Shown: positions 4,931-47,979 of the stretch, piece after piece
Layout of the letters: every line of letters begins with the position of its first letter
Numbering within the stretch: position 1 is the stretch's first letter
The notes under the pieces: generated by a model
What the model was told of the DNA's origin: nothing
Database searches by the model: none
The model's input: only the letters and a program-made list of their open reading frames with translations
Made by a program: the position numbers and the translations under genes
Origin: Polyangia bacterium
Lineage (GTDB): Bacteria; Myxococcota_A; Polyangia; JAHFDS01; DATFWX01
Length of the DNA stretch: 64,000 nt
Assembly: GCA_035258845.1 (NCBI GenBank)
Contig: DATFWX010000218.1
Coordinates: forward strand, 17,354-81,353
Reading direction: 5' to 3'

Positions 4931-6247
4931 TTGGCACCCGAGTTGCTTGTCGCTCGCCCGTTGCGAAGCGCTCCCGCATTTGCGCTGGCCATCCTCCTGG
5001 CCATTCCGGCCCCGGCCTGGGCTGGGCCGCCCTCTGGCGCACCGCGCGTGCGCACCCGCAACGGGAGCAGCACACCCCGCGCACGCACGTACTTCGGGTA
5101 TCACGGCAAGGAGGTCCCCCACTACTACCATCCCGAAACCGGCGCGTTTCTCTATCGGCCCCCGCGCCCGCACGTGCTTCCGCTCGACAACGGCGACGAG
5201 CCGCTCCGTTTCGTCCGGCTCAACTTCCCGAGCTCCCAGAATCTGGAGGGGATGTTCCGGGAGGTGCTGACCGATTGGGTCCATGCGTTGACCAAGATCG
5301 GAAGCATGCGGCTCAAAATCCTGGTCAACGAGGGCGATCAGGCTCGGCTCGCCGCGCTGATGCAGGACCTGCCGCCGGGGCTGCGCGCGCGCATCGAACC
5401 GGTCCCGATCGCAGGCGACAACCACGTGCGGCCCTGGCCCCGCGACCCGTCGGTGCTCCTGGCGGGCGGCCGGAAGCTGCTCCTGCCGCGAGCGCGCATG
5501 CTTGGCCACGAGGAGGAGGAGCATGAGCATCCCCAGCGGATCGCGGACTACTTCGGGGTGGTCGAGAAGTACGCGCACGCCGCCGGGTTGCCGCTCGAAC
5601 GCTCGGCCTTCCGGTTCGAAGGCGGGAACATCCTGGTGGGTCGCCGCCACGTCTTCGTCGGCTCGGACATCGTTCAAAATGCCATGGCCGATTACGACAT
5701 CACGGAGGAGGAGGCAGTCGCCGCGCTCTCGCGCGAGTTTGGCAGACCCGTGCTCTCGATTGGCAGGCGTGATGCCCAACACCCGCGCTCCGAGCTACGC
5801 CAGCCCAGACAGCACATCGATCTCGCGATGGCCGTCGTGCGCGATCGCCGGAGCGGCCGGGAGGTTGTCCTGCTGGAATCGCCGAAGCTGGCGCGAGATC
5901 TACTGGGCGATCGCCTAGGGAGCGTTGAACCCGAAGGCGCGCTCTGGCGCGATGATGAGAATTCCGAGGCCGATTTCGATGCGGCCAGGCGGGCCCTGCG
6001 CGGTGAGGGCTACGAAGTCATCGACGTGCCGGGGCTGACCACCGGGTGGGCCAGCTCGCTCAACTATACCAACGCCGTGCTGGCCTCAGGTCACGCAATG
6101 ATTCCACAGCTCGATATCCCCGAGCTCGATGTTTATGCGGCCAACGTCTATCGCCGGCTGGGCTATGAGGTGATCCCGATGCGCTCGGCCCGTCGGTCGC
6201 TCGAGCTCAATGGCGGGCCCCGCTGCCTCGGCGAGCACTGCCGCTAA
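4931..6247 (+). CDS. secreted amidinotransferase-superfamily protein (agmatine/peptidyl-arginine deiminase-like)
   Basis: N-terminal signal peptide. C-terminal ...NYTNAVLASGHAMIPQL... NGGPRCLGEHC resembles the GGGxHC catalytic-Cys end of the Porphyromonas-type deiminase / guanidino-modifying fold. Assignment from motif resemblance only. Confidence 0.45.
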   Translation: MAPELLVARPLRSAPAFALAILLAIPAPAWAGPPSGAPRVRTRNGSSTPRARTYFGYHGKEVPHYYHPETGAFLYRPPRPHVLPLDNGDEPLRFVRLNFPSSQNLEGMFREVLTDWVHALTKIGSMRLKILVNEGDQARLAALMQDLPPGLRARIEPVPIAGDNHVRPWPRDPSVLLAGGRKLLLPRARMLGHEEEEHEHPQRIADYFGVVEKYAHAAGLPLERSAFRFEGGNILVGRRHVFVGSDIVQNAMADYDITEEEAVAALSREFGRPVLSIGRRDAQHPRSELRQPRQHIDLAMAVVRDRRSGREVVLLESPKLARDLLGDRLGSVEPEGALWRDDENSEADFDAARRALRGEGYEVIDVPGLTTGWASSLNYTNAVLASGHAMIPQLDIPELDVYAANVYRRLGYEVIPMRSARRSLELNGGPRCLGEHCR

Positions 6248-6662
6248 CCCTGGGCACTCGGCAACAACTTTCAGGTGGCCGGCGTGGCCAGCGTCTATCT
6301 CGTGATGCTTGGCTGCAGAAGCGATTTGCGGCTCACGAGCGCGGCCACATAGAGGCTGGCCAGAGGGTCCGAGCGCGCGATCACATAGGTTCCGTGCGGC
6401 TCTGCGTCGTGCACGCCCAGCTCAGGTCCACAGCCAGGCGGCACTTGTCGTGCACCGTCGACAACAGGGCGTAACCGGGAGAGAGCGGCCGGCAGTCCCC
6501 AGCCCTGGCTAGTCTAGTCAGGCGCAACCGGGGTGGTCATTGCGAGTCGCCTCGCGGCGACCGCGATCGCGATTAGACGCATAGCGGGGAACCCGGTGGA
6601 GGCGCGGACCGGTGCGGCCGGCGACGCGCGCGGATGTCAAAGTCTGGCCGCGCGGTCGGGTC

Positions 6663-6947
6663 TTACCACAAGCCGTAATAAGCGCAGGCAGGTCCGTTCC
6701 AAGCCGCGTTTGCGGCGTCGTTCGCCACGCTCCACGTGGCGTCGTTCCAATCGCTTACGTTAACACCTGGGGCAAAGTCTTCTCCCGCATTTGCCGCGGC
6801 GCGCCACACCGATTCGGTGCAGGAGTAAGTCGCCAGGTTATCGAACGCCCAGTAGTTCCACACATCTAAACCTTTGCCTCCAACCACGCTCCCGAGCACC
6901 GATGCTTCGATCGAAACCAACCGCGCCTGCTTGTTCTTCTTGTTCAT
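6663..6947 (-). CDS. double-glycine-leader bacteriocin-like peptide precursor (copy 1)
   Basis: MNKKNKQARLVSIEASVLGSVVGG followed by a 70-aa Trp-rich core with 2 Cys. Hydrophobic residues at leader positions -4, -7, -12, -15 and GG at -2/-1 fit the class II / GG-leader consensus. Paralog of 7058..7342. Confidence 0.6.
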   Translation of the reverse strand: MNKKNKQARLVSIEASVLGSVVGGKGLDVWNYWAFDNLATYSCTESVWRAAANAGEDFAPGVNVSDWNDATWSVANDAANAAWNGPACAYYGLW

Positions 6948-6988
6948 AAGATGTCCTCCAGACTCTGCCTCAGCCTGCCAACTGCTTG

Positions 6989-7004
6989 TGCAGCTCGCGT
7001 GCCA
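6989..7004 (-). promoter_or_regulatory. sigma-54-type -24/-12 promoter element (TGGCACGcgagCTGCA) upstream of peptide copy 1
   Basis: In gene orientation, ctcgcctcTGGCACGCGAGCTGCAcaag lies about 50 nt upstream of the ATG. GG and GC are spaced as in the TGGCAC-N5-TTGC consensus. The identical element precedes copy 2. Confidence 0.5.
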
Positions 7005-7057
7005 GAGGCGAGAACGCCCCGTCGGCGAATGTCAACGTCTGGCCGCGCGGTCGGGTC

Positions 7058-7342
7058 TCACCACCAGCCGTAATTGGCGCAGGCAGGTCCGTTCCAAGCC
7101 GCGTATGCGGCGTCGTTCGCCACGCCCCACGTAGCTTCGTTCCAATCGCTTACGTTAACACCTGGGGCAAAGTCTTGTCCTGCATTTGCCCCGGCCTTCC
7201 ACACCGCTTCGTAGCAGGAGTTACTCGCCAGAAAAGCGAACGTCCATTCGTTCCACACATCTAAACCTCGGCCTCCAGCCACGCTCCCGAGCACCGATGC
7301 GTCGATCGAAGCCAACCGCGCCAGCTTGTTCTTCTTTTTCAT
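7058..7342 (-). CDS. double-glycine-leader bacteriocin-like peptide precursor (copy 2)
   Basis: MKKKNKLARLASIDASVLGSVAGG followed by a 70-aa Trp-rich core ending ..NGPACANYGWW. About 75% identical to copy 1. Confidence 0.6.
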   Translation of the reverse strand: MKKKNKLARLASIDASVLGSVAGGRGLDVWNEWTFAFLASNSCYEAVWKAGANAGQDFAPGVNVSDWNEATWGVANDAAYAAWNGPACANYGWW

Positions 7343-7383
7343 GATATGCCCTCAAAGCTCTGCCCTGAGCTGCCAGCCTGAAG

Positions 7384-7399
7384 TGCAGCTCGCGTGCCA
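7384..7399 (-). promoter_or_regulatory. sigma-54-type -24/-12 promoter element upstream of peptide copy 2
   Basis: Same TGGCACGCGAGCTGCA 16-mer as at 6989-7004, in the equivalent position relative to the ATG at 7342. Confidence 0.5.
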
Positions 7400-7452
7400 G
7401 AGGGCGAGAACGCCCGTAGGCGGATGTCAACGTCTGGTCGTGCGGTCGGTTC

Positions 7453-7479
7453 TCACCACCAGCCGTAATTGGCGCAGGC
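7453..7479 (-). pseudogene. 3' remnant (last 8 codons plus stop) of a third GG-leader peptide gene
   Basis: The rc reads ACANYGWW*, identical to the copy 2 C-terminus. The sequence 5' of it (in gene sense) is replaced by unrelated DNA that belongs to the integrase fragment. Confidence 0.5.
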
Positions 7480-8008
7480 ATGGTGTTCGCGATGCGCAGC
7501 AAGGAGCAAAGACGAGGTATCCGGGCGTGCAGCGAATCAACGACACAACGTGCCGAGTGCGGATCAAGTTGCGCGATCCGCGCAGCGGGAAAACGCGGGA
7601 GGTGGACAGGCTCGTCGAGGCGACGAGCGTCAGAGAAGCCGCAAGAAAACGCGCACTGCTCATGTCCGAGAAGCGCGCGGAAAACTCCGAGAGAAATTGG
7701 GGCCTCCGATCAGGGTGGGTATTCCGGTCGGACAACGGAACGCTGCGTGAGCCGAGTTCGCTTCGCAAGGCGTGGCGGGGCAGCCTCAAGGCGGCGAAGA
7801 TCGAGAAGCACTTCACCGTCCACGGGTTGCGGCGCACCTTCAACGACCTCGCAGGGCGTGCAGGCGTCGATGCGGTCGTGACGCGGGCGATCACGGCCAC
7901 GTGACCGAGCAGATGCGCGAGCACGATTCGACGGTCGGTCTGGATGAGAAGCAGGCCGCCGTGGCAAACGTTCTGCGGCTCGTTCCAGCGACGAATGTCG
8001 GGACTTAG
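7469..8008 (+). pseudogene. tyrosine recombinase (phage-type integrase), 5'-truncated and frameshifted
   Basis: Only the C-terminal catalytic half is present (...[50 protein letters not shown] / [15 protein letters not shown]...). The H-x-x-R and GH boxes are split between two frames near 7895. No N-terminal domain or start codon. Ends 63 nt before the tRNA-Gly. Confidence 0.6.
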
Positions 8009-8070
8009 GTGGAGGCGCGAGGGATCGGCCTTGACACACGCCGATGATTCGCCAATGCTCTCCCAAGTTT

Positions 8071-8143
8071 GCGGGCTTAGCTCAGTTGGTAGAGCGTCGG
8101 CTTCCCAAGCCGAAGGTCGCCGGTTCGAGACCGGTAGCCCGCT
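8071..8143 (+). tRNA. tRNA-Gly (anticodon CCC)
   Basis: Hand-folded cloverleaf. Acceptor stem GCGGGCT/AGCCCGC (7 bp). D arm GCTC-AGTTGGTAG-GAGC. Anticodon stem TCGGC/GCCGA with loop TTCCCAA, giving anticodon CCC. T arm GCCGG-TTCGAGA-CCGGT. Discriminator T. No encoded CCA. Confidence 0.85.
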
Positions 8144-8875
8144 CCGCTGCGTGAGGCCCCGGGTTGACGCAACCTGGGCACCGCTCCAGGCGCCGGCCGC
8201 GCCCACGCCACCATCCGCCGTGGTCCTCGCTGTCGCGTGTCGACCCGTCGTCCAGCGGGGGTCCACCGTCCTTCTGATTCCCGGTGATCGACGCCGATTC
8301 GCATCCGGTCCAGCAGCCCGTCGCCATCGCCAGGCCGCAAAGAAGATTCGGCAAGCAGGGCCGAGGCATCTGCTTTCTGCCGTCAAGGCTAGCAGGAACC
8401 ACACCCACAGTCAGCGCCGCGGGCGGAGCGTCCGCTATGGGAAGCTGCGATCGTGTGGGCGGGGATGAGGGCGGCGGCGTACTTCAGCTCGTTGCTGATC
8501 TTCTTGCGTTCCTGCTCGAGCCGCTCGCGCCACTCCCGTTCCCGAGGAAAATCCCTCTGGTGAACGCCGCACCAGCCAGAACGAGGGGAATAGACGGGTC
8601 TTCATGAACGCGCGAGAGCATGATATATGTCACCTCTCGATCAGCTGCAATTGATGGCGTGACGGGGGCGTGGAGTGCGACATTCCTGTCCGATCGGCCT
8701 CGTTGGCCAGACGAAACGAGTGACGAGCTGCCCTGGAGGGTTCGATCAGACGTCCGGAACTCTGCTCGGATCACCCGAGCGTCTTTGTGGACGCCACGAT
8801 GGCCGAGCAGCAAGGGCTTCCCTGCGCAGAACTCTGCCCTCGCGGTCCTAACCATTTAGGGATGATTCCCATCGC

Positions 8876-9355
8876 GTGAAGACAGAAGACGTCGCAAGGG
8901 CATACAGGATGCACGGCTATCTGGTCTTGCGACGAGCGCGACGTGTGCTGGGCAACGAGAACGAGGCCGAGGACGTGCTCCAGGAGGTGTTTCTTTCCCT
9001 GCTCGACAAGCCGGCGCAATTCGAAGGTCGGAGCGCGCTGACCACCTGGCTGTATAGTGCGACGACGCACCTTTGCCTGAATCGACTGCGCAATCAACGC
9101 ACGCGGCGCGCGATCTTGGAGCGCGCCGCGCCCCCGTTAGCGTCCCACCCGGCGCCAGGGGCCGAGACCATGGTGGCGCTTCGATTGCTGCTCGCCCAGC
9201 TGCCCGACGCGGTCGCGCGTGTAGCTGTCTACTACTATTGCGACGAGATGACCCAGGACGAGATCGCACGCGTCATGGGCTGCTCGCGCCGCCACGTCGG
9301 CAACCTTCTCGAGCGGCTCAGCGCTGCTCATCAAGACGCGGGAGGATGCGTATGA
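8876..9355 (+). CDS. ECF (sigma-70 family group 4) RNA polymerase sigma factor
   Basis: Region 2 (DVLQEVFLSLL.. TWLYSATTHLCLNRLR) and region 4 HTH (EMTQDEIARVMGCSRRHVGNLLERL). The stop overlaps the start of the anti-sigma gene. Confidence 0.85.
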   Translation: MKTEDVARAYRMHGYLVLRRARRVLGNENEAEDVLQEVFLSLLDKPAQFEGRSALTTWLYSATTHLCLNRLRNQRTRRAILERAAPPLASHPAPGAETMVALRLLLAQLPDAVARVAVYYYCDEMTQDEIARVMGCSRRHVGNLLERLSAAHQDAGGCV

Positions 9356-10089
9356 GCCAGCCGTACCAGCGATCGCGCCCTCCCTCGTGCCCCTCCGATT
9401 TGCGTCTCGACCACTTCCTCCTCGGCGAGCTGGAGGAGCAGGAGACAGCCAGCCTCCGCGCTCATCTGGATAGCTGTTCACACTGCACCGCCCGCCTGGC
9501 CGCCATGGACTCGGAGCGCGAACAGTTTGGCAGACAGTTTGGCGCATGGGTGCCCAGCAAGCCGCGTGGAAGACGATTTCGATGGCGGTTGTGGCCGGTA
9601 TTGTCGCTCGCGGCGGCTGCTGCCGCGATCTTGCTGGTGGTCGAGCTGCGTCCCGAGCGCGGAGGCTTGCCCACCATCCGTGGAAAAGGGCAGAGTCGAC
9701 TGGAGTTCTATGTCCGCCACCAGGGAGTGGTCCGCAGAGGCTCGACGGGAGAAGCGGTGCTCGCAGGTGACGCACTCCGGTTTGCCTACTCCAGCGGCGC
9801 ACCCGGATACCTTGCCGTCATCAGCCTGGACGGCCGTGGACGCGCCACAGTCTACTATCCGCCCCAATCCACCATGATCCCGATCGCGGCCGGTGACGAC
9901 ATCCTCCTACCGGCGAGCACGATCTTGGACGACGCCCCCGGACCAGAGCAGATCTGGGGCGTGTTCTGCCGAGTACCGCTCGATCTCGAGCCGATCCGCG
10001 CTCGCGTGGAAAAAACACGAAGGGCGCCGACCCTGCCCGATGGCTGTCAAATCGACGCAACGTCGATCGAAAAGCGCACGTCGCGATGA
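9346..10089 (+). CDS. zinc-finger (ZAS-type) transmembrane anti-sigma factor
   Basis: N-terminal HLDSCSHC (HxxxCxxC) motif, then one TM helix (WPVLSLAAAAAAILLVV) and a periplasmic domain. Its start overlaps the sigma gene and its stop overlaps the next gene's ATG (ATGA). Confidence 0.7.
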   Translation: MRMSQPYQRSRPPSCPSDLRLDHFLLGELEEQETASLRAHLDSCSHCTARLAAMDSEREQFGRQFGAWVPSKPRGRRFRWRLWPVLSLAAAAAAILLVVELRPERGGLPTIRGKGQSRLEFYVRHQGVVRRGSTGEAVLAGDALRFAYSSGAPGYLAVISLDGRGRATVYYPPQSTMIPIAAGDDILLPASTILDDAPGPEQIWGVFCRVPLDLEPIRARVEKTRRAPTLPDGCQIDATSIEKRTSR

Positions 10090-11663
10090 GCCCTCACCGT
10101 CTTACGGTCACCCTACTCCCGGTCGCGGCCCTGGCTGTGTTCGAAGTGGCGGCGCAGGCGCGCGTGGAGCGCTACGCCGTACTGGTCGGCAACAATCACG
10201 GCACCGCGCAAGAGACGCCCCTTCGCTATGCCGAGGACGACGCGGTTCGCCTGAAGGATGTGCTCGAGCAGCTGGGGGGTTTTCCCGCAGAGAACCTGGT
10301 CCTTATCCGCAATGGAAGCGCCGACTCGCTCACGCGCGCTTTGATTGCGACCAATGATCGAATTCGCGCAACCACGAGCGGCGGCGGAAGAGCGGTCCTG
10401 TTCGTCTATTATTCGGGACATGCGGACGCTGAGGCGCTTCATCTGGGGGCGAGCCGCCTCGAGCTCAGGGAGCTCGAGCAGCTGGTTCGCGGCTCTGCGG
10501 CCGGCTTTCGCATCCTGGTGCTCGACGCTTGCCGTTCCGGCCGGCTCACCCACGTCAAGGGGGGAAAGCTGGCGCCACCTTTCGACGTCGAGCTCGAACG
10601 CACACTCGCCAGCGAGGGAACCGTTTTCCTGACCGCCAGCGCGGCAGGCGAGGACGCGCAGGAATCCGATGAGCTCGCCGCCTCGTTCTTTACCCACTAC
10701 TTCGTCTCGGGGCTGCTGGGTGCGGCGGATCAGGACGAAAATGGCGCGGTCACGCTCGACGAAGCGTACCGGTACGCCTACGAGAACACGCTCCGATCGA
10801 GCAGTCGAACGGCAGGGAACGTGCAGCACCCGACCTTCGAATACGACCTTCGGGGGCAAGGAACTGTCGTGGTGACCATGCCCGAGCGGGGACGGCCCGA
10901 CCGTGCAACCCTGTCGTTCCCGCCTGGACGGTTCTTTCTGGTCCTACAAGGCGATGCGGACGGGCGCGTGGTAGCTGAGCTGGGGGCGCGCGAGCGCACG
11001 CGGCGGCTCAGCGTTCGACCCGGCCGATACTTTCTTCGCAGCCGAGGTCCGACCAGCCTCCTCGAAGGAACCGTCACCGCGTCGGCAGGGCGGGAAACCC
11101 TCATCGATGAAAGCCGGCTGGTACGGGTCGAATACGGCCGGCTCGTCCGCAAGGGCGAGGGCATCCGCCGAGTGGCGCACGGACTCGAGGTCGGATACCA
11201 GGTAAGGACGCCACTCTACGAGGGAGCTTTTCTCTGCCAGGGCGGTTTCGTGGGCTACGTCCTCGAGCTCGCGGCCTTGAGCATCGAACCAAGGCTCGCG
11301 TTCTGTCGGGATACAATCGACGGCGTGAACATCGCAACCACCGCGTACGACGCTGATCTCGAGCTGCGGCTGACCCATGCTTGGGACATTGGGCGCTGGA
11401 CGCTGTCGCTGGGAGGCGGCGGCGGACTGGGCCTTCTGTATGAAACCTTCGTCATCCGGGGCAAGGCACCCGATCGGGCCAGTGCCGCCGCCCAGCTCGC
11501 GGGCGAAATTGGGGTTGGGCGTGATCTGGCGCGCCACCTTTACTGGCAATGCCGTGCTGAGGGGCTGCTGTTCCTCTTTGATCGCCAGGATGCCGAGGGC
11601 CGCGTCACGTTTGGATCTGCTCTTGCGGTCCGCGGCAGCCTGGGCCTGGGATGGCATTTTTGA
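10086..11663 (+). CDS. secreted caspase-domain (peptidase C14) protein with C-terminal beta-barrel-like domain
   Basis: Signal peptide. Caspase His/Cys dyad context (VLFVYYSGHADAEAL ... FRILVLDACRSGRL). The C-terminal ~270 aa show alternating hydrophobic beta-strand patterns and end ...SLGLGWHF, an aromatic-terminal outer-membrane beta-barrel signature. Confidence 0.65.
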   Translation: MSPHRLTVTLLPVAALAVFEVAAQARVERYAVLVGNNHGTAQETPLRYAEDDAVRLKDVLEQLGGFPAENLVLIRNGSADSLTRALIATNDRIRATTSGGGRAVLFVYYSGHADAEALHLGASRLELRELEQLVRGSAAGFRILVLDACRSGRLTHVKGGKLAPPFDVELERTLASEGTVFLTASAAGEDAQESDELAASFFTHYFVSGLLGAADQDENGAVTLDEAYRYAYENTLRSSSRTAGNVQHPTFEYDLRGQGTVVVTMPERGRPDRATLSFPPGRFFLVLQGDADGRVVAELGARERTRRLSVRPGRYFLRSRGPTSLLEGTVTASAGRETLIDESRLVRVEYGRLVRKGEGIRRVAHGLEVGYQVRTPLYEGAFLCQGGFVGYVLELAALSIEPRLAFCRDTIDGVNIATTAYDADLELRLTHAWDIGRWTLSLGGGGGLGLLYETFVIRGKAPDRASAAAQLAGEIGVGRDLARHLYWQCRAEGLLFLFDRQDAEGRVTFGSALAVRGSLGLGWHF

Positions 11664-11722
11664 TCTCCATGCCCAAAGGGAGGGATGGCGGTCCAAAGAG
11701 AAAAACGTTTCGGGAGGACGCC

Positions 11723-12748
11723 ATGCACGTTCGATGGAAGACGGTCCCGGTCATGCTCCTTTGTGGAGGCATCGCATGCGACGCGCAGACCGATCGGAGC
11801 TACCGGGGAGAAGTGTTGGCCACCATCCACGGCCGGATCACGAAAGCAGACGTGCCGACGCCGCCCGAGGTACGCGTCGCCCTGGCTTGGTATCAGCCTC
11901 AGGCGAGCTCATCGCAATGGCACCTGGTCACGCAAGATCAGGGGGTGCGCGCCCAGTTTCCAGCCAGTTTCACCTTGGACGTGACAGTTCTGCCGCCGGA
12001 GTCTGCATTCACTCATCCGAGCATGCATACCATCCAGACTTTCAATCTCGATCCCAACACCCGCTGGGCTTCTGGATTCCTGGTTGTCTACGAAGATGGG
12101 AACGGCAACCAGAGCCTGGATATCGTCTCGTCTGCCGACCAGACTTCACCCGATCGAATCCTCGCCGTGCCGTTCGATTACAACATCGAATATCTGGAAG
12201 GCACGCCATTCCCCAATACTGGGCTTGGAAAATACTTTCCCCACAGCGTGGGCTTCCAGCTGGTCAGACTGGCGCCCAACCAGGATCAACGCCCCGAGGA
12301 CTGCGAAGACCCGGTCGGTACCCACTATTACACCGCCTGCGATCCTGTGCCGGTTGGACCTCAAGAAGATTTGGCCGCGTCGACCGAGATCCCGATCGAG
12401 CTGACCGGATCGCCTGAACTGCAACATTACGCTTGCGACAGGTACTTCGGTGCAGGGGAGTGGGCGGATTGGTTTGTCTACGAGACCAAGAACAACATTC
12501 GGGATGGGTCCGAGCTCTGCGATCGGCCCGACTGCCCGTTTTGTGACAATCTCTTGGATGACAGTATGAGGTGTCCGATCGATCTTCCCCCGTCTGGCGC
12601 TCCGGTGACGTGCAGCCAGGATCGGCGAGCCTACGTCTACAAAACCTGCCAAATGGATGCTTCGCTGTGTGGAACCACAGTCTGCCATTTTGGTCACTGG
12701 GGCCTTGCTTCTACCGATCCGATTCCGGCGGGATGGCCTTGCCTCTGA
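11723..12748 (+). CDS. Cys-rich secreted lipoprotein (hypothetical)
   Basis: MHVRWKTVPVMLLCGGIAC signal/lipobox. About 14 Cys concentrated in the C-terminal half (CDRPDCPFCDN, CQMDASLCGTTVCHF). Third codon positions are noticeably less G/C-rich than in neighbouring genes. Confidence 0.5.
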   Translation: MHVRWKTVPVMLLCGGIACDAQTDRSYRGEVLATIHGRITKADVPTPPEVRVALAWYQPQASSSQWHLVTQDQGVRAQFPASFTLDVTVLPPESAFTHPSMHTIQTFNLDPNTRWASGFLVVYEDGNGNQSLDIVSSADQTSPDRILAVPFDYNIEYLEGTPFPNTGLGKYFPHSVGFQLVRLAPNQDQRPEDCEDPVGTHYYTACDPVPVGPQEDLAASTEIPIELTGSPELQHYACDRYFGAGEWADWFVYETKNNIRDGSELCDRPDCPFCDNLLDDSMRCPIDLPPSGAPVTCSQDRRAYVYKTCQMDASLCGTTVCHFGHWGLASTDPIPAGWPCL

Positions 12749-13070
12749 GGGGAACCGCCGAGCAGGAGGAGTAGCGCGAGCTGGATGAGGGAAATCTCAC
12801 TCCGCCAGCCCTCGACGAGCGATACGCAGAAATGCCCGGCCCGGGGATACCCACAGCGCGCCCGCGTCGATCCGCCCGGAAGCTCGCGGATCTCTGCCCC
12901 GGGGGCCTGCGCCCGAATCGGAGGCTCATCGCCGCGACTCGCAGCCGGGATCCCCATCAGGAGAGCCCAAGCCGACGAGCGCCGCTCAAGTCACGCGTCA
13001 GAACCTTCCCGAAACCGCGAGGCCGGTCAGCCCCTGGCGGCCATGGCTGCCCGGAAGCGCCCGCCCGGGC

Positions 13071-13310
13071 TCAGCCGATCCCCCAGCCGCCGTTCCCGTT
13101 TTCGTCCGGTACGACGTCAGTCGGGTCGAAATTGAACCACGGCCCATCGATAGGCAAATTCTCAGGCCACCACTCGCCATTTAGGTTTCTGTAGCCCCAG
13201 TCGCCGTCGATTTCGACGCCGCCGCCGTAAGGGTACAGGTCTGCACCCCCGCGTACGTTTTGGAGCTCCGAGACCGAAAGCTCTTGTTGCGTCCACGTCG
13301 TTTCTTTCAT
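13071..13310 (-). CDS. double-glycine-leader, Gly/Trp-rich bacteriocin-like peptide precursor
   Basis: MKETTWTQQELSVSELQNVRGG matches the LSxxELxxVxGG leader consensus, with GG immediately before a 57-aa Gly/Trp/Asp-rich core (GGGVEIDGDWGYRNLNGEWW..GNGGWGIG). Strong RBS GGAGGGAG 7 nt upstream of the ATG. Confidence 0.6.
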   Translation of the reverse strand: MKETTWTQQELSVSELQNVRGGADLYPYGGGVEIDGDWGYRNLNGEWWPENLPIDGPWFNFDPTDVVPDENGNGGWGIG

Positions 13311-13336
13311 GGTTGCTCCCTCCTTCGGCAGACGGG

Positions 13337-13352
13337 AGCAACGCGCGTGCCG
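13337..13352 (-). promoter_or_regulatory. sigma-54-type -24/-12 element (cGGCACGcgcgTTGCt) upstream of the Gly/Trp peptide gene
   Basis: In gene orientation, ccGGCACGCGCGTTGCTccc lies about 25 nt upstream of the ATG. GG-N10-GC spacing fits the sigma-54 consensus. Confidence 0.45.
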
Positions 13353-13633
13353 GCGCGCAATGAGGCCGAGTCGCGTGACTCGCCACGTCTCAGACAGGGA
13401 CCGACCACTCCACCCGCTGCGGTTTCGACACCGCACCTTCACAGGGGGGGTCGCGATGTCGACAGATGTTGACACTTTGCGCGCGCTTGCACGCCCGCCA
13501 AAGCGGATGCCTGCACAAAGAATCCCGAGCCACCATGAGACGCGTTTCTGGCCACCCGAGTAGCCGGCCAGCCCCCCCTGAGCGTAGCATAAGCTATTGA
13601 TTCGTACGGTTACCTCGTGGCCTCGGAATTGCT

Positions 13634-14803: not shown

Positions 14804-15087
14804 GCTTCCGCTTCCGCTTCCGGTTTCGGTTTGTCCACGAAATGGCCTGCCCCGCAACCGGTTCCTGCTGCAACACCACGAGTTGCGGTAGGCTCTAGCA
14901 AGCGTGTTCGCGCCACACGAAACCACCAGGGACCCCCAACCTTCCCGTTTCGCGGCCGCGTAGCCAGTCGGCGACATGAAGGCACGCTTCTTGCTGTTCT
15001 GCCCCCCAACATGTCTGGCCCCGCACAGCGGCGCCGCTCATCGACGGTCATGCCGCCGCAAAGTACAGGTGCAATCGGCATTTCCCC

Positions 15088-15756
15088 ATGATGAGCGCCC
15101 CCCTTCGTGAAGCACGGCTGGCCGGCCACTCCGGTCGCCGGCCCGGACGCGCGCGCTTGGCCGTCGCGGCAGGGCTCGTCGCGCTGCTCGCGTCTGCCTC
15201 GGCGTCCGCCGGCCAGGTCCGGGTGGTGCACAGCATTTCCGGGCGTGTACGAGTTCACTCGTCGAGCGTCTACGGCTCCCCCGATGAGGCCAACCGGATC
15301 CAGCGAAGCCTCGAACGTCTCAACGGTGTCGAGTCCGTCGAGACCAATGCGCTGACGGGCAGCGTGCTGGTTCGATACCGGCCTCAGGAGGTCACCGAGA
15401 CGCGCATCGTGCGTGCGCTCCGCGGCAGTCGGGCCCCATCCAAATCGGCCGCGCCACCGCAGGATCAACCCACCCAGCCCGACGGCCTCCCGACCAAGGT
15501 GGCTCACGCTGCCGTTCGAGCGGTCGCTCGCGAGACCGCCGAGCGGATGGCGATGAAAACGGGGGCAAAGGCTTTGGAGCGAATCATCGGTGAGGAAGCA
15601 GCCGAAGCCATCATTCCAGGGGTTGGTGTGGCGCTGACGGCCTTGGATCTCGTCTCGAGCGTGCGCAGCACTTCGCAAGCGAAGGCGGATCCGGTGCCGC
15701 CGTGGCTCAACTTGGGGGTCAAGCTCCTCGCGACCGCGCTCGTAGCGGCGTTCTGA
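15088..15756 (+). CDS. secreted hypothetical protein with HMA-like (ferredoxin-fold) domain lacking CxxC
   Basis: Signal peptide. The segment VHSISGRVRVHSSSVYGSPDEANRIQRSLERLNGVESVETNALTGSVLVRY follows the beta-alpha-beta-beta-alpha-beta pattern of heavy-metal-associated domains but has no metal-binding cysteines. Confidence 0.4.
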   Translation: MMSAPLREARLAGHSGRRPGRARLAVAAGLVALLASASASAGQVRVVHSISGRVRVHSSSVYGSPDEANRIQRSLERLNGVESVETNALTGSVLVRYRPQEVTETRIVRALRGSRAPSKSAAPPQDQPTQPDGLPTKVAHAAVRAVARETAERMAMKTGAKALERIIGEEAAEAIIPGVGVALTALDLVSSVRSTSQAKADPVPPWLNLGVKLLATALVAAF

Positions 15757-15824: not shown

Positions 15825-16079
15825 TCAGCCAACCATGTGAACGAGCCATCGCTTGAATTGAGGCCAGAGATTCAATCGCCCCACAACGCAAATGTCGCCG
15901 ACACGCAGGTCCTTTCCCTGCTCAAGTCGGTCTATCCCGTCTACGAGAGATTCATTCCACATGACCAGTATCGGAAATTCGTCGTTCTCGCGCAGGTTTC
16001 GAACAACTATCACATGGGTTGCGTCTTTCTCCCTGGCCTCTTGAAGCCAGCGCCGGATATCGGCGGCAGTCGCGAGCAT
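15825..16079 (-). CDS. small hypothetical protein in a lower-GC patch
   Basis: 84-aa ORF (..KDATHVIVVRNLRENDEFPILVMWNESLVDGIDRL..) in a ~300-bp stretch clearly lower in GC than its surroundings. The coding call is tentative. Confidence 0.3.
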   Translation of the reverse strand: MLATAADIRRWLQEAREKDATHVIVVRNLRENDEFPILVMWNESLVDGIDRLEQGKDLRVGDICVVGRLNLWPQFKRWLVHMVG

Positions 16080-17314: not shown

Positions 17315-20300
17315 TCACGCGGGCAATCGCCGCCCTTTCCAGGCCAAGTAAACCGCCGGATACACCATCAGCTCCAGAATGGCCGACGTCACCACGCCGC
17401 CGACCATGGGCGCGGCGATGCGCTTCATGACATCCGCGCCCGTGCCCTGCGACCACAGAACCGGCAGAAGGCCCGCCAGAATGGTCGCGACCGTCATCAT
17501 CTTGGGGCGGATGCGCTTGACGGCACCATGGAAAATCGCTTCCTTGGCCGCCTCGCGCGTCTGCGGCGCCCACTCGCGCCAGGCCAGGTCGAGGTAGAGC
17601 AGCATCACGATCCCGGTCTCGGCATCGAGCCCGGCCAGAGCGATGATGCCGACCCAGACCGCGACCGACAGGTTGTAACCAAGCAGCGACAACAACCAGA
17701 AGGCGCCCACCAGCGAGAAGGGAACCGCGAGCATGACCAGCAGAGCCTCGGTCACGCTGCGCGAGTTGAAGAAGAGCAGAATGAAGATGATCGCGAGCGT
17801 CACCGGGACCACGACCAGGAGGCGCGCTTTCGCTCGTTCCAGGTAGCGGTACTGCCCCGCCCACTCCAAGCGGCAGCCGGCCGGAAGCGTGAGCCGAGCG
17901 ATCGCCTTGCGGGCATCCCCGACGTAGTCCTCGATCGGCCGCGCGGTGTCGGCGAACACGTAGCCATAGAGCTGGCCGCCCTGGTCGCGCAGCATCGACG
18001 GGCCGTCGCGCGACGAAAGGCGGGCGAGCTGACCCAGCGGCACCTGGGCACCGTCCATCGTCGCCACCAGGACGCGCTCGAGATCGGGCACGCTGGCGCG
18101 GAAGTCGCGCGCGTAGCGCACGGTGACCGGGTAGCGCTCGCGCCCCTCGATGGTCGTGGTCAGGGTCTTGCCGCCGATTGCGCTCTCGATGGCATCCTCG
18201 ACGTCCTCGACATTGAGGCCATAGCGCGCAGCCGCGTCGCGGTCGATGTCGAAGTCCAGGTAGTGCCCCCCACCGAAGCGCTCGGCGAACGCGCTGCGCG
18301 TGCCCGGCACCGTGCGCAGCGCGGCCTCGACCTTGCGCGCGACCTCGTCGATCACGTCGAGGTTGGGGCCCAGGACCTGGATGCCGAGCGGGCTGCGCAC
18401 GCCGGTCGCCAGCATCTCGGTGCGGGTCTGAATCGGCATCCACCAGACATTCGGCATTCCCGGAAATTGCATCGCGTCGTCGAGCTTCTTGAGCAGCGCG
18501 TCCCAGTCCTCGCCCGGGGGCCACTTCTCGCGCGGCTGGAGCTCGACCACGGTCTCGAACATCTCGAGCGGCGCCGGGTCGGTCGCGGTCGAGAAACGGC
18601 CGGCCTTGCCGAACACGCGCCGGACCTCGGGGAACTGGGCCAGCACCCGGTCCATCCGCTGCAAGGTATCGCGCGCGGTCTCGCCGCTCATGCCGGGGAC
18701 CGAGCTCGGCATGTAGAGCAGCGTGCCCTCGTTGAGCGGCGGCATGAACTCGCTGCCCAGGCTCCTCACGATCGGCACCGTCGCCGCCACCAGCAGCGCG
18801 GCCGCGCCGATGACGAGGTACCGCCTGCGCAAGGCAAAGCGGCACACGGGCCCGTACAGGGCCGCCAGCGCGCGCGTGATCGGATTTTGGTCCTCGCTGC
18901 GAATGCGGCCCCGAATGAACAGCGCAGCAATCGCCGGCACCAGCGTGACCGACAAGATGGCGGCGAAGCCCATCGAGAAGGTCTTCGTAAAAGCCAGCGG
19001 CTTGAACAGGCGTCCCTCGGTGCCCTCGAGCGTGAACACCGGCAAGAAGCCGACGGTGATGACCAGAAGCGAGAAGAAGATGGGCCGACCAACTTCGGTC
19101 AGCGCCGACGTCACGACCTCGTGGCGCGGCTGCGGCCGGCCCGCCTGCTCCCAGCGTTCCAACCGCTTGTGGACGTTTTCGACCACGATGATGGCGGCGT
19201 CCACCATCGCGCCGATCGCGATCGCAATTCCGCCCAGGCTCATGATGTTTGCGGTCAGCCCCATGCGCGCCATCGGGATGAACGCCAGCAAGACCGCAAT
19301 CGGCAGCATGGCGACCGGCACCAGCGTCGAGCGCACATGCAGGAGGAAGACCAGGATGACCAGGCTGACCACGATCATCTCTTCGAATAGAGTGAGCCGC
19401 AGCGTGTGGATGCTGGCGCGGATCAGCTCCGAGCGATCGTAGGTCGGGACGACCTGGACGCCCGCCGGCAGAGTGGCTCTGAGCTCGTCGAGCCGGGCCG
19501 TGACCGCGCCGATGACGGCGAGCGCGTTCTCGCCCTGGCGCATGATGACCACCGCGCCCACGACCTCGCCCCTGCCGTCGAGCTCGGCCAGCCCGCGCCG
19601 CTGGGCCGGCCCGATGCGCACCCGTGCCAGGTCGCGCAGCATGATCGGCGTGCCCTTCTCGCTGCCCAGCACGACTTTCTCCAGATCGGCGGGCTGCTTC
19701 ACGTATCCGCGACCCCGGATGAAATGCTCGGTGCCCGAGATCTCCAAGACCCGCCCTCCCACGTCATTGTTGGATTTGCGCACCGCGTTCATGACCTGCA
19801 TCAGCGAGACGCCGAACTGCTGCAGGCGATTGGGATCGAGATCGATCTGGTACTCCTTGCCAAAGCTGCCCACGCTGGCGACCTCGGCCACGCCGGGCAC
19901 CGATTGCAGCGCGTAGCGCAGCGTCCAGTCCTGGAGCGACTGCAACTGCTCGAGCGTGTGCTGGCCGCTGCTGTCGGTCAGCGCGTACTCGAATACCCAG
20001 CCCACGCCGGTCGCGTCCGGGCCCAGAGTCGGCGTCACGCCGGCGGGCAGCTTGGCTCCGATCGCCGACAGGTACTCGAGCACGCGGCTGCGCGCCCAGT
20101 ACAGGTCCGCGCCCTCCTCGAAGATGACGTGGACGAACGACATGCCAAACATCGACTGGCCGCGCACCGCGGTCACGTGCGGGGCGCCGACCAGCGTGGT
20201 CACGATGGGATACGTGACCTGGTCTTCCACGAGGTCGGGCGAACGGCCCATCCACTCGCTGAAAATCGTGACCTGGACATCCGACAGGTCGGGCAGCGCG

Positions 20301-20410
20301 TCGAGCGGCGTCGCGCCCAGCGACTGCACGCCGTAGGCGCCGCCCAGCACGACCAGCGCGACCGTCAAGATGCGATGGCGCGCACAGAGCGCAATCAGGC
20401 GCGCGATCAT
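17315..20410 (-). CDS. czcA: heavy-metal RND efflux pump, CzcA/CusA family (HME-RND)
   Basis: 1031 aa, 12-TM RND architecture. Conserved stretches such as GAVVIMRQGENAL and AIGAMVDAAIIVVEN. Last gene of a three-gene operon whose coding regions overlap. Confidence 0.9.
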   Translation of the reverse strand: MIARLIALCARHRILTVALVVLGGAYGVQSLGATPLDALPDLSDVQVTIFSEWMGRSPDLVEDQVTYPIVTTLVGAPHVTAVRGQSMFGMSFVHVIFEEGADLYWARSRVLEYLSAIGAKLPAGVTPTLGPDATGVGWVFEYALTDSSGQHTLEQLQSLQDWTLRYALQSVPGVAEVASVGSFGKEYQIDLDPNRLQQFGVSLMQVMNAVRKSNNDVGGRVLEISGTEHFIRGRGYVKQPADLEKVVLGSEKGTPIMLRDLARVRIGPAQRRGLAELDGRGEVVGAVVIMRQGENALAVIGAVTARLDELRATLPAGVQVVPTYDRSELIRASIHTLRLTLFEEMIVVSLVILVFLLHVRSTLVPVAMLPIAVLLAFIPMARMGLTANIMSLGGIAIAIGAMVDAAIIVVENVHKRLERWEQAGRPQPRHEVVTSALTEVGRPIFFSLLVITVGFLPVFTLEGTEGRLFKPLAFTKTFSMGFAAILSVTLVPAIAALFIRGRIRSEDQNPITRALAALYGPVCRFALRRRYLVIGAAALLVAATVPIVRSLGSEFMPPLNEGTLLYMPSSVPGMSGETARDTLQRMDRVLAQFPEVRRVFGKAGRFSTATDPAPLEMFETVVELQPREKWPPGEDWDALLKKLDDAMQFPGMPNVWWMPIQTRTEMLATGVRSPLGIQVLGPNLDVIDEVARKVEAALRTVPGTRSAFAERFGGGHYLDFDIDRDAAARYGLNVEDVEDAIESAIGGKTLTTTIEGRERYPVTVRYARDFRASVPDLERVLVATMDGAQVPLGQLARLSSRDGPSMLRDQGGQLYGYVFADTARPIEDYVGDARKAIARLTLPAGCRLEWAGQYRYLERAKARLLVVVPVTLAIIFILLFFNSRSVTEALLVMLAVPFSLVGAFWLLSLLGYNLSVAVWVGIIALAGLDAETGIVMLLYLDLAWREWAPQTREAAKEAIFHGAVKRIRPKMMTVATILAGLLPVLWSQGTGADVMKRIAAPMVGGVVTSAILELMVYPAVYLAWKGRRLPA

Positions 20411-21849
20411 GGCGCAGCTCGCCAGCGCGGAAGCGCATCCCGGAGCTTGGCCTCGCTCGAGAGCAGAAAGGTGGCCGACAGCGCGACCCGGTCTCCGGCT
20501 GCAAGCCCCGCTTTCACCTCGTGGTACTCGCCGGCCTGCACGCCCACCTGCACCTCCACCGGCTGCAGCCGACCCTGGCCCCGATCCACGAACGCGTAGC
20601 GGTGCTCTCCCGACAAGAGCAGCGCGCTGTCGGGCACCGCGAGCGCGACGCCCAGCGGCACTTCGATGACGACATCGGCAAACATGCCCGGGCGCAGGGT
20701 CAGGCGCGGATTGATGAGCTCCAGGCGCGCCTCCAGCGTGCGCGTCTTCTGGTCGACGGTCGGCGCCACGAACGTCACCCGCGCCTCCAGAGCGCTGTCG
20801 GGCTGCGACGGCAGCGTGATGGTGGCGGGCTGGCCGACCGCGACCCGCGCGGCGTCACGTTCGTAGATGGCCGCCTGCACCCACACCCGTCCCAGATTGC
20901 CGATCCGGTACAGCATGGTGCCCGGCATCACGTGGGCGCCCTCGACCACGTTCTTCTCCAGGACCACGCCGCTGGCCGGCGAATAGATGGTGGCCCGGCC
21001 GTCGGCCTTGTCACGCCGTTCAAGGGCCGCGATCTGGTCCTTGGTGATGTCCCAGTGGGTGAGGCGCTGGGTGATTGCGCCCACGATCTCGGGCGCGCCG
21101 CCGGTGCGTCGCGCAGCCAGAAGCTCCTGCTCGGCCGCCAACAGGTCGGGGCTGTAGAGCGTTGCCAGCGCCTGCCCCGTTCGCACCGCCTTGCCGGTCT
21201 CGCCGACCAGGAGCTTCTCGACGAAGGCCTCGTACTTGAGCGTGACCTCGCCCACTTTGCGCTCGTCCACCTCGACCAGGCCGGCGGCGCGCAGGGTCAC
21301 CGCGAGTGGTCGCTGCTCGACGGTCGCGAAGGTGACGCCGATGAGCTGCTGGCGCTCGGGTGAGACTTCGATGACCGCGCCCGTGCCGGTGCCCGTGCCC
21401 GCACCCGCGCCCGCGCCCGCGCCCGCTACGCTGCCGCGGCCGCTCTGCACCCGGAACCCTTTGTGCGGGGGCGATACTTTGAGCCCGACCTCCTGGTGCG
21501 GATGGCCTTGCGCATCGATGCCAAGCGTGAGCGACCAGTCGCCAGCCATGGGCAGCCGGTACGTGATCTGGTAGCGCCCGCGGTCTTGCGGCTTGACCTC
21601 GCCGCCGCCCTTCATTTCGGGCATCGCGCCCATCGCAGGCATGCCATAAACGAACGCGATGTGGGCACCGTCGACCGGGTTGCCGCTCGCGTCCTTGATC
21701 GTGACCAGAAGCCGGTTGTCGCCGCTGGTCGGCGGATCGGGATCGATCGCGAGCGCGAGCTCGAGATCGCCGACGGCGGCCGTCTGCGGCGCGCCTTTGG
21801 CGCAGCTCAAAACCGCAAGCGCGGCCCAAAGGAGGGTTCTTGTCTTCAT
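20407..21849 (-). CDS. czcB: RND membrane-fusion protein (CzcB/CusB-like) with N-terminal FixH/YtkA-like Met-rich domain
   Basis: Signal peptide. N-terminal Ig-like domain with MPAMGAMPEM. (GA)n(GT)n linker. Then MFP lipoyl/beta-barrel regions. Overlaps czcA and czcC. Confidence 0.85.
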   Translation of the reverse strand: MKTRTLLWAALAVLSCAKGAPQTAAVGDLELALAIDPDPPTSGDNRLLVTIKDASGNPVDGAHIAFVYGMPAMGAMPEMKGGGEVKPQDRGRYQITYRLPMAGDWSLTLGIDAQGHPHQEVGLKVSPPHKGFRVQSGRGSVAGAGAGAGAGTGTGTGAVIEVSPERQQLIGVTFATVEQRPLAVTLRAAGLVEVDERKVGEVTLKYEAFVEKLLVGETGKAVRTGQALATLYSPDLLAAEQELLAARRTGGAPEIVGAITQRLTHWDITKDQIAALERRDKADGRATIYSPASGVVLEKNVVEGAHVMPGTMLYRIGNLGRVWVQAAIYERDAARVAVGQPATITLPSQPDSALEARVTFVAPTVDQKTRTLEARLELINPRLTLRPGMFADVVIEVPLGVALAVPDSALLLSGEHRYAFVDRGQGRLQPVEVQVGVQAGEYHEVKAGLAAGDRVALSATFLLSSEAKLRDALPRWRAAP

Positions 21850-23156
21850 GGCTCATGCTCCTCTCGGGTTCCAGATTGGGCAGCCTGGGCCAGGCCCAGA
21901 TCGGCCGCGACGGCCCGCTCCAGCTCGGCCAGGCGCTGCTCGTACATCGCCATGTGCGTCGCGAGATCGAGCTCGTGCATCTGGAGATCGCGGTCGGCAT
22001 CGAGCACCATCAGGAAGCTGCCCCGACCAGCCACGTAGGCGGCGGTTGCGCTGTGCAAGGCCTGCCGCGCCACCGGAATCAGTTGATGGTGCAGCTCGAC
22101 CTGCCGCTTTTCGGCTGCCACTTCGGCCGCGGCATCCGCGACCTCGGCCAGCACCTTGTTCTCGAGCGCCTTAAGGTCGGCGCGCGCGGCCTCGAGCTGC
22201 GCCGACGCGGCGGCTTGCTGGGGCTGATTCTTGCTGGCGCCGAAGATGGGCAGGTTGCCCTGGAGACCGACGAACAGGAAATCCGAGACGCCCGGCCCCG
22301 ACATTCCGAAGGTGTGCATCTCACCCGCGATCAGCCCCAGGTCGGGCACACGCTGCGCCTCGGCGAGAGTGATGTGCGCCTGCGCCTGCGCGATGGCGGC
22401 GCGCGCGGCCCAAAGCTCGGGGCGCCCGGAGAGCGCGCGATCGCGTAGCTCCGCGAAAGCCGGCAACGCGGGCACCAGGCTGGGCTCGGCGGTCGTCCCC
22501 ATCTCCGATCCGGGCGGACGGTCGAGCAGCGCCACCAGCTTGGCGTTGGCCGCCACCCGGCGCGCCTGCGCCGCTTCGCGATCCGACTCGACCTTGAGCA
22601 GCTCGGCCTGCGCACGCAACGCCTCCGACTGCTCGCCGCGCCCGGCCGCAATGCGCGCGGAGGCCGCGCCCAGCAGCGAGCGCAGCGTGCGCTCGATTTC
22701 GCGATCGACCTCGATCGTGCGCTCGGCCAGAAACAGATCGAAATAGGCCTTGGCCAGCCCGGCTTCGACGTCGCGCAGCCTGGCCTCGGCCTGGGCCCGC
22801 GCCATCGCCTCGGCGCCCCGCGCCAGGTCACGCCGGGCCGCGCGCTTGCCGCCCAGCGGAACCGTCTGGGTGAGCTGGAACATCACCGGCACGGTCGAGA
22901 AATCGACCGGCGCGTTCCACAGCTCCACCATCAGCATCGGGTCGTCGAGGGCGCCCGCGGGTGCGACCGAGGACGTGGCGGCGCGCGCTTGCGCCCGCGC
23001 GGCCCGCACCTCGGGATTCTTTTGACGGGCTTCGGCGATGAGCGCGGCCAGCCGGATCACGGGGGGCCGCTCCTGCGCGCGGGCGGGCCCGGCCAGCCCG
23101 ACCACGGCAAGACACAACGCGAGCTTTCTCATCTGACACCTCACGGACAGATCCAT
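21846..23156 (-). CDS. czcC: outer-membrane efflux protein (TolC/CzcC family)
   Basis: Signal peptide followed by two coiled-coil/beta-barrel repeats typical of OEP family proteins. First gene of the czc operon. Confidence 0.8.
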   Translation of the reverse strand: MDLSVRCQMRKLALCLAVVGLAGPARAQERPPVIRLAALIAEARQKNPEVRAARAQARAATSSVAPAGALDDPMLMVELWNAPVDFSTVPVMFQLTQTVPLGGKRAARRDLARGAEAMARAQAEARLRDVEAGLAKAYFDLFLAERTIEVDREIERTLRSLLGAASARIAAGRGEQSEALRAQAELLKVESDREAAQARRVAANAKLVALLDRPPGSEMGTTAEPSLVPALPAFAELRDRALSGRPELWAARAAIAQAQAHITLAEAQRVPDLGLIAGEMHTFGMSGPGVSDFLFVGLQGNLPIFGASKNQPQQAAASAQLEAARADLKALENKVLAEVADAAAEVAAEKRQVELHHQLIPVARQALHSATAAYVAGRGSFLMVLDADRDLQMHELDLATHMAMYEQRLAELERAVAADLGLAQAAQSGTREEHEP

Positions 23157-37062: not shown

Positions 37063-37189
37063 TGTCCTTTTCCGAGGACGTAGGCCCCAGTTTGCCGTCA
37101 ACGACCTTTCAACTCGCCACACTAAGCGGCGCAACGGCAGGGGATTCGCCCCTTTGACAGCCTCTGGGGGCCAAGTATCCTTAAGGGTT

Positions 37190-37810
37190 ATGAGCCGGGG
37201 AGGCCGGCCCGCGGCCCACGTCGGGAGCAAGACCAATCACGGGATCACCAGCGCGGACAAGCAGACCGTCCACGTAGGGGGCCGGCCGGTCTCGTACGTC
37301 AACGCCCCGCATAGCTGCAAAATGCACAAGGGGAAAGGCCGCAAGGTCGCCTCGGGCGCCCCCACCGTGCTGGTTTACGGTGTGCCCGTGACCCGGGTCG
37401 ACGAGAAGATGACCTGCAGCTGCAAGGTTGTGGACGGCGTCCAGAACGTGCTGGTCGGCGACGCCAAGCCCGAGCTGGGCCCGCTCGAGCCGGTCGATCT
37501 CTGGATCCGCCTCGATCTGGACCCCCAGGCGGCGTCGGTGTGCTCGGATCGCTACATCCTGACCGCGTCGGACGGCTCGTATCGACGCCAGAAGATTGTG
37601 CTGTCCAACCACATTCCCAACCAAGAGACGGTCGACCTGCATTACCTGGGCTTGCATCGCAGCAAGAGCTACAGCCTGGAGGTGATCGAAGAAGGCGGAG
37701 CCTCCACGTTCGTGTTCCAGAACGTGCCGTACCCACAGCTGGCGGGGCTCAAGGGACCCGCGCGCACGCCCCCGCCCGCAGGCGGCGGCTCGTGCTCCTG
37801 CCATTCCTAG
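37190..37810 (+). CDS. PAAR-domain protein (T6SS spike tip) with C-terminal extension
   Basis: N-terminal PAAR-like repeats (HGITSADKQTVHVGGRPVSYVNAPHSC ... VLVYGVPVTRVDEKMTCSCKVVDG). Start trimmed to ATG 37190. A vgrG is nearby. Confidence 0.65.
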   Translation: MSRGGRPAAHVGSKTNHGITSADKQTVHVGGRPVSYVNAPHSCKMHKGKGRKVASGAPTVLVYGVPVTRVDEKMTCSCKVVDGVQNVLVGDAKPELGPLEPVDLWIRLDLDPQAASVCSDRYILTASDGSYRRQKIVLSNHIPNQETVDLHYLGLHRSKSYSLEVIEEGGASTFVFQNVPYPQLAGLKGPARTPPPAGGGSCSCHS

Positions 37811-37811
37811 C

Positions 37812-39484: not shown

Positions 39485-39512
39485 CGCCTTTCGATAGTGG
39501 TAAGAAGGCCGT

Positions 39513-41922: not shown

Positions 41923-41923
41923 G

Positions 41924-45403: not shown

Positions 45404-45404
45404 G

Positions 45405-47887: not shown

Positions 47888-47979
47888 ATCCAGAAGGAGA
47901 ATCTACTTCGGCCAAGGCTTCGGGTCAATTCGGGAAATAGGCGATCGACAGATGTGGGCCCGACACCTATAATCTCCCC

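Follow-up and report, generated by a model that had tools for sequence, protein, structure and literature searches.

A candidate double-glycine-leader peptide gene behind a sigma-54-type element in a Polyangia bacterium

Can a small gene with no exporter beside it be recognised as the precursor of an exported peptide, and what would control it? A 79-codon open reading frame in a 64,000-nucleotide stretch of DNA (the window, analysed over its full 64 kb) from a soil Polyangia bacterium, annotated as a MAG, raises both questions. Myxobacteria are known for their social behaviour and antibiotic production, and use sigma-54 and enhancer-binding-protein signalling for development. To our knowledge, double-glycine-leader peptides are essentially uncharacterised in these organisms. 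In Gram-negative bacteria as a whole, such peptides are widespread (PMC12219008). Most likely, the window peptide stands for a new sequence family, a very rare one, among the already known double-glycine-leader exported peptides, with export predicted; what appears unusual about it is the putative sigma-54 control, the orphan location and the predicted core.

The precursor gene and its homolog

The precursor gene occupies positions 13071–13310 on the minus strand and comprises 79 codons plus a stop (ATG at 13310, stop at 13073–13071). Its product, MKETTW...GWGIG*, reads in full MKETTWTQQELSVSELQNVRGGADLYPYGGGVEIDGDWGYRNLNGEWWPENLPIDGPWFNFDPTDVVPDENGNGGWGIG. An earlier sequence-only reading of this DNA had given the same translation, which we reproduced exactly, and the ribosome binding site it placed before the ATG is present at 13323–13316: direct reading of the sequence finds the Shine-Dalgarno motif GGAGGGAG (13316–13323, minus strand) 5 nt 5' of the start codon. 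The GC content by codon position is 0.60/0.45/0.71, a coding-type pattern that was seen neither in the overlapping or neighbouring small ORFs nor in the in-frame upstream extension to a GTG at 13475. The same 79-aa product was called by gene finders on 10 independent soil-metagenome contigs. These contigs add no evolutionary information because their DNA is at least 99.7% identical to the window and, across the gene, identical.

Among about 15 billion proteins covered, including an exhaustive HMMER search over 1.84 billion representatives, only one other family member (P0002) was found. P0002 is likewise 79 aa long, is 61% identical in an end-to-end alignment, and has its start and end in common with the window peptide. 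Word-indexed protein searches, first with the peptide and then with both sequences aligned, recovered nothing beyond the peptide and P0002. A further HMMER match, P0003, is a repeat-rich 464-aa protein and was rejected as spurious; a weak tblastn match of P0002 on the sequence L012 was dismissed as low-complexity noise. Back-translated patterns and a degenerate DGDWGYxNxxxEW DNA pattern gave zero matches in genome_contigs and metagenome_contigs, collections that evidently do not contain the source organism either. Relatives of the peptide were likewise absent from Pfam, NCBIfam, PADLOC, PDB sequences and a plasmid tblastn search. The peptide family is real and extremely rare in current data.

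Spurious ORFs are abundant in high-GC genomes, and a peptide that carries no family annotation could in principle reflect a random ORF that the cell does not translate. The existence of P0002, with its shared start and stop, effectively refutes this reading, to which we assign next to no probability; the coding GC pattern, a strong Shine-Dalgarno motif at ideal distance and a leader motif with a chance probability of ~0.005 (see below) speak against it as well. The 79-codon precursor peptide gene is genuine.

Leader and predicted core

PCAT substrates share the consensus L(-12)xxxE(-8)L(-7)xxxxG(-2)G(-1), in which position -4 is hydrophobic; according to the PCAT1-CtA structure, binding requires Leu-7 and Leu-12, which pack as a hydrophobic knot onto the C39 peptidase domain, while position -4 tunes specificity (PMC6959990). 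In the window peptide, codons 1–22 (13245–13310, minus strand; MKETTWTQQELSVSELQNVRGG) supply L11, E15, L16, V19, G21 and G22 as L(-12), E(-8), L(-7), V(-4), G(-2) and G(-1), respectively. The LSxxELxxVxGG leader described in the sequence-only reading thus fits, with all consensus positions present and all identical in P0002. The leader is 22 residues long, within the range of about 15–30 residues ending in G-[GAS] that marks PCAT cargo, and ends at G21-G22, as the P0002 leader does, with cleavage predicted after Gly22. It also satisfies the [KEQI]x[IL]x9G[GAS] part of a published microcin-screening regular expression (PMC12219008).

A six-frame translation of the 64 kb window has a single match to the strict motif L...EL..[IV].GG, where residue shuffles lead one to expect 0.005. 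A relaxed version, [LIVM]...E[LIVM]..[LIVM].G[GAS], also occurs once within the first 35 residues among 2884 candidate starts. By inspection no Sec or Tat signal was found, the N-terminus MKETTWTQQELSVSELQNVRGG being hydrophilic and devoid of a hydrophobic h-region, and none of the leader models in Pfam, NCBIfam and PADLOC matched the peptide. Read from its sequence, this N-terminus is a canonical double-glycine leader on a small gene product.

Conservation between the window peptide and P0002 is uneven. The leader (residues 1–22) is identical at 16/22 positions and the core (23–79) at 32/57. Directly after the double glycine, only 1/8 residues (23–30) are shared; identity rises to 22/31 over residues 31–61, drops to 1/10 over residues 62–71 and is complete (8/8) in the C-terminal GNGGWGIG (72–79). 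This distribution of conserved leader, variable junction and partly conserved core is the pattern expected of a processed peptide, and would be indicative rather than statistical with two sequences, a family of this size making any conservation statistics thin. Loss of the leader in orthologs had been named as evidence that would count against the assignment; in P0002, the single known homolog, the leader is kept.

The predicted mature peptide (codons 23–79; 13074–13244, minus strand) would be an acidic 57-mer rich in Gly, Trp, Asp and Asn, with a mass of 6312 Da (6.3 kDa, compared to 8.8 kDa for the full precursor), a pI of 4.05 and a GRAVY of -0.75. It is strongly anionic and hydrophilic, with 11 acidic residues to 1 basic, and contains 12 Gly (21%), 5 Trp and one Thr; Cys, Lys, His, Met and Ser are lacking, and no amphiphilic or hydrophobic helix segment was found in the core. 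Four [DN]-G-x-W motifs, starting at residues 35, 44, 55 and 73 (IDGDWGY, LNGEWWP, IDGPWFN and GNGGWGIG), punctuate the core, a number that was reached in 0/20000 shuffles. This repetition is a hint that the core may form a small repeat made up of turns centred on Trp. An AlphaFold2 model of the peptide had a pLDDT of 36.7 and was unusable.

The sigma-54-type element and the surrounding locus

Upstream of the gene, on the same strand, lies the sigma-54-type element CGGCACGcgcgTTGCT (13337–13352), with 1 mismatch to TGGCAC-N5-TTGCW. The -24 GG is at 13351–13350 and the -12 GC at 13339–13338, and 26 nt separate the element, CGGCACG-N4-TTGCT, from the ATG. The sequence-only reading had noted GGCACG-N5-TTGCT here; both element and place are borne out, and only the spacer requires correction to N4, GGCACG-N4-TTGCT corresponding to the canonical TGGCAC-N5-TTGC spacing. 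Allowing up to 1 mismatch, TGGCAC-N5-TTGCW is found 8 times in the window against 1.95 expected, a count reached in 0/100 shuffles, and 3/8 matches lie 26–41 nt 5' of three small peptide ORFs in the correct orientation. Canonical spacing would place the transcription start near 13326, giving a 16-nt mRNA leader, GAAGGAGGGAGCAACC. No sigma-70-like promoter or intrinsic terminator was detected around the gene. Two further sigma-54-like elements are found on the plus strand: AGGCACGCTTCTTGCT (14980–14995) is located 93 nt 5' of an HMA_2 heavy-metal-associated gene (15088–15756), and a perfect TGGCACCCGAGTTGCT (4932–4947) overlaps the start of a PAD_porph-like ORF (4931–6247), which it cannot serve.

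A perfect 9-nt inverted repeat, GTTGCTCCC / GGGAGCAAC (13312–13342, minus strand), places the -12 element in its 5' arm and the Shine-Dalgarno region in its 3' arm. As RNA, it folds with -29.2 kcal/mol (z = -3.1). On this model, transcription driven by sigma-54 would begin within the loop, giving a message that lacks the 5' arm and has a free Shine-Dalgarno motif, while in read-through transcripts from upstream the motif would be buried and the message translationally silent. As the -12 element doubles as the 5' arm of a hairpin that sequesters the Shine-Dalgarno motif, the CGGCACG-N4-TTGCT element might alternatively belong to an RNA structure and have no promoter role. A scan of 12.4–13.9 kb against Rfam gave no match.

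Independent support for sigma-54 control comes from P0002, whose gene is found 230 nt downstream, on the same strand, of a gene for a 636-aa enhancer-binding protein with FHA-GAF-Sigma54_activat-HTH_8 architecture. Pfam scans found no enhancer-binding protein (Sigma54_activat) within the 64 kb window. A candidate activator-binding site can be proposed from the sequence upstream of the element: the palindrome TGCGGT-N6-ACCGCA (13418–13435) is located ~92–109 nt upstream of the predicted start, a position that would fit a bEBP upstream activating sequence, together with TGTCAACA and TGTCGACA at 13457–13474. The heptamer TGTCAAC/GTTGACA occurs just 3 times in the window on both strands (7034–7040, 7429–7435 and 13468–13474). 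The three copies are distributed one per peptide gene, in each case 5' of the sigma-54-like element, and no heptamer other than GTTGACA is shared by all three upstream regions. As a shared motif it was rejected: the observation is post hoc, some heptamer is shared in 499/500 shuffles, and the sharing is not significant, given that one of the three regions duplicates another.

The other two peptide genes are tandem paralogs (6663–6947 and 7058–7342, minus strand) encoding 94-aa products with the N-terminus M.KKNK..RL.SI..SVLGSV.GG, a Trp-rich composition and a conserved C-terminal WNGPAC..YG.W. Each copy is preceded by TGGCACGCGAGCTGCA (TGGCAC-N5-CTGCA). Homologs that are 53–54% identical were found in other samples (L011, 638–966; L012, 947–1281), and these keep TGGCACATCGC[CG]TGCA 28–40 nt before the ATG, while the surrounding DNA differs, a second line of support for sigma-54 control. 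Together, the elements at the window peptides and at these homologs suggest an arrangement in which putative sigma-54 promoters precede small GG-type peptide genes, and which seems recurrent in the lineage. The pair resembles the 79-aa peptide in its N-terminal ...L..V.GG, Trp-rich core, conserved aromatic/Gly C-terminus and sigma-54-like element, but differs in having Val instead of Glu at -8 and in containing Cys residues. The two kinds have no detectable sequence similarity, and the 79-aa peptide had rightly been called unrelated to the pair. A putative shared regulon of the three peptides, with a distant transporter, would fit the data, the link being the promoter type they have in common.

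When all long coding ORFs of the 64 kb window were scanned against Pfam, neither a C39-peptidase ABC exporter nor a dedicated membrane-fusion protein emerged; the matches did include CusCBA, kinases, a MacB-type permease and genes for type VI secretion. The 4.4 kb contig of P0002, from JGI 3300047160, similarly holds no C39-peptidase ABC transporter, membrane-fusion protein or sigma-54 activator beyond the FHA-GAF one. No tailoring enzyme (radical SAM, LanM, P450, YcaO etc.) is present among the neighbours of the window gene. A search for a small immunity ORF downstream had been suggested, and no credible candidate was found in 12749–13070: no ORF with a coding signature is present there or in 13311–13633. 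Two minus-strand ORFs of 87 and 72 aa in 12694–12957 were rejected, as they have no coding signature and were called by gene finders only on truncated contigs. The hallmarks of a double-glycine-leader peptide that reside in the leader are present, while those that reside in the locus, an adjacent exporter and an immunity gene, are absent. A window that has no exporter is consistent with a transporter encoded elsewhere, of which it is no proof; and since exporter, activator, modifying enzyme and immunity ORF are all missing from the window, export and cleavage are predictions here.

Downstream of the peptide gene, and convergent with it, is the gene for a 341-aa Cys-rich lipoprotein, the last of a four-gene operon (8876–12748, plus strand) that also encodes an ECF sigma factor, a zf-HC2 anti-sigma factor and a caspase-like peptidase. 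The latter is a secreted 525-aa protein with a Peptidase_C14 domain and a large C-terminal extension, and has a sub-threshold match to the NCBIfam model 'caspase, EACC1-associated type'. Upstream and divergent lie the gene for a 389-aa secreted protein of no known family and then the HMA_2 gene. PDB sequence and family searches yielded nothing for either the 341-aa lipoprotein or the 389-aa secreted protein. Further along, an 84-aa ORF (15825–16079, minus strand; GC 54.5%, GC3 0.61) is supported by a gene call on metagenome contig L001 and has no family match. A CusCBA-type heavy-metal RND efflux operon, in which CusB carries an N-terminal YtkA domain, spans 17315–23156 (minus strand), and type VI secretion genes (FHA, PAAR, TssM/IcmF and VgrG) are located among Ser/Thr kinase genes at 35662–50524.

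The peptide gene has a GC content of 58.8%, compared to 68.2% for the window. A low-GC patch had been proposed around it, and this holds for the gene and for 11.8–12.8 kb (57–59%), but not for the spacer at 12.8–13.07 kb (68%). A GC3 comparison had also been proposed, which we ran against window genes, taking as reference 24 genes with Pfam support from the rest of the window (mean 0.853, sd 0.032). The seven genes located at 6.6–13.3 kb were all found to be low, with GC3 values of 0.65–0.76 that lie 3–6 SD below the rest of the window, compatible with horizontal acquisition. The low-GC3 stretch contains a tRNA-Gly(CCC) gene (8071–8145, plus strand) and a weak C-terminal phage-integrase fragment (7326–7904, plus strand). 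This suggests that 6600–13350 is an acquired island or the remnant of one.

Proposed mechanism, alternatives and known systems

The reading we favour, at a probability of roughly 55%, is that of a double-glycine-leader precursor gated by sigma-54 and its activator, which a PCAT encoded elsewhere cuts after Gly22 to export an acidic, Trp/Gly-rich 57-mer. Sigma-54 RNA polymerase would bind the -24/-12 element at 13352–13337 and fire only with an enhancer-binding ATPase, of the FHA-GAF type next door to P0002 and presumably encoded elsewhere for the window gene. The resulting short-leadered mRNA would expose its Shine-Dalgarno motif and give a precursor that has no Sec-type signal. The PCAT would then cut after Gly21-Gly22 and export the 57-residue peptide, the route in a diderm cell probably running via a membrane-fusion protein and an outer-membrane channel. 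Outside the cell, the acidic peptide with its four putative Trp-centred turns may act antagonistically, in a microcin-like fashion, or as a signal or matrix peptide. The anionic, hydrophilic core is unlike that of most characterised bacteriocins, and we count this against a PCAT cargo.

The same property is among the arguments for a small acidic intracellular protein, in which the N-terminal helix and GG would serve partner binding or activator feedback, uncleaved and non-exported. Small genes downstream of regulators sometimes encode regulatory partners, no exporter, membrane-fusion protein or immunity gene is near either family member, and a strongly acidic, hydrophilic core is atypical of membrane-active bacteriocins. 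Yet all six defining PCAT leader positions are matched at the right N-terminal distance, in a motif that is unique in the window and conserved, and the segment after the GG is hypervariable, as expected of a cleavage junction and not of a folded domain. We consider an intracellular role a doubtful, minority explanation. Lower still, and unlikely in our estimate, ranks a RiPP precursor, whose leader would be read by distant tailoring enzymes, for instance ones that cross-link or otherwise alter Trp, Tyr, Asp or Asn, and would afterwards be removed by a GG-specific protease or transporter. Leaders of the LSxxELxxVxGG type are common to class II lanthipeptides and NHLP/Nif11-type precursors, which counts in favour of such a peptide, and the repeated [DN]-G-x-W motif or the strictly conserved C-terminus could be a modification site. 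Set against this, there is no modifying enzyme among the neighbours, the flanking genes encoding secreted proteins or lipoproteins of no known family; the core lacks Cys, Ser and Lys and has a single Thr; and NCBIfam RiPP-leader models gave zero matches.

The sequence-only reading had likened the core to class IIb or Gly-rich bacteriocins, a likeness that does not survive closer inspection. The GG leader and the 21% glycine of the core do recall a class IIb two-peptide or Gly-rich pore-forming bacteriocin. A single gene with neither a partner peptide nor an immunity ORF, a core of the pI and GRAVY given above with no amphiphilic or hydrophobic helix segment, a diderm Polyangia bacterium as producer and zero matches to bacteriocin family models make this highly improbable. 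The PCAT cargo reading is the one we retain.

A bolder version of the PCAT cargo reading is offered tentatively, as we think it rather improbable. It would make the peptide the representative of a new functional class of Myxococcota PCAT cargo, an orphan, sigma-54/FHA-GAF-gated, acidic peptide of Trp-centred turns that acts as an intercellular signal, matrix or metal/calcium-binding peptide and not as a toxin. It would belong to a sigma-54-controlled exported set together with the unrelated pair at 6.6–7.4 kb, in a compositionally foreign island beside tRNA-Gly. On the PCAT cargo reading as such, the peptide would add a cargo type that has no sequence relatives, is acidic and is built from Trp-centred turns, and would link peptide export to sigma-54/enhancer-binding-protein signalling. 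Should it prove to be no more than a narrow-spectrum microcin of the ordinary sort, the gain would be modest. Double-glycine-leader genes can sit far from any exporter, and exporter-anchored genome mining would therefore miss them.

Most described PCAT cargos are encoded beside their transporter. Compared to known PCAT cargos (CtA/PCAT1, ComC/ComA and LahA/LahT), the window peptide shares the 22-aa leader consensus, the lack of a Sec signal, the small cargo and a leader that is better conserved than the cargo, but has no PCAT gene within 64 kb and no sequence relative among known cargos. Class II microcins (MccV/ColV and the set in PMC12219008) are similar in their diderm producers, precursors of <10 kDa, double-glycine signal and Gly-rich, unmodified-looking core, which in some microcins is anionic as here. 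Their export needs a PCAT, a membrane-fusion protein and an outer-membrane channel, as proposed for the window peptide. They differ in that the window peptide has no adjacent immunity gene or cvaAB-like genes, a leader of 22 aa as opposed to 15–18 aa, apparent control by sigma-54 and an enhancer-binding protein, and a core of four [DN]GxW turns with no hydrophobic segment. A further comparison is offered by EbfG1-4 of the cyanobacterium Synechococcus elongatus, which are reported to be small secreted GG-motif proteins with a role in the biofilm matrix and not as antibiotics (PMC4997328). EbfG1-4 come from another phylum and have no sequence similarity to the window peptide, yet they provide a precedent for a Gram-negative GG cargo that need not be a toxin.
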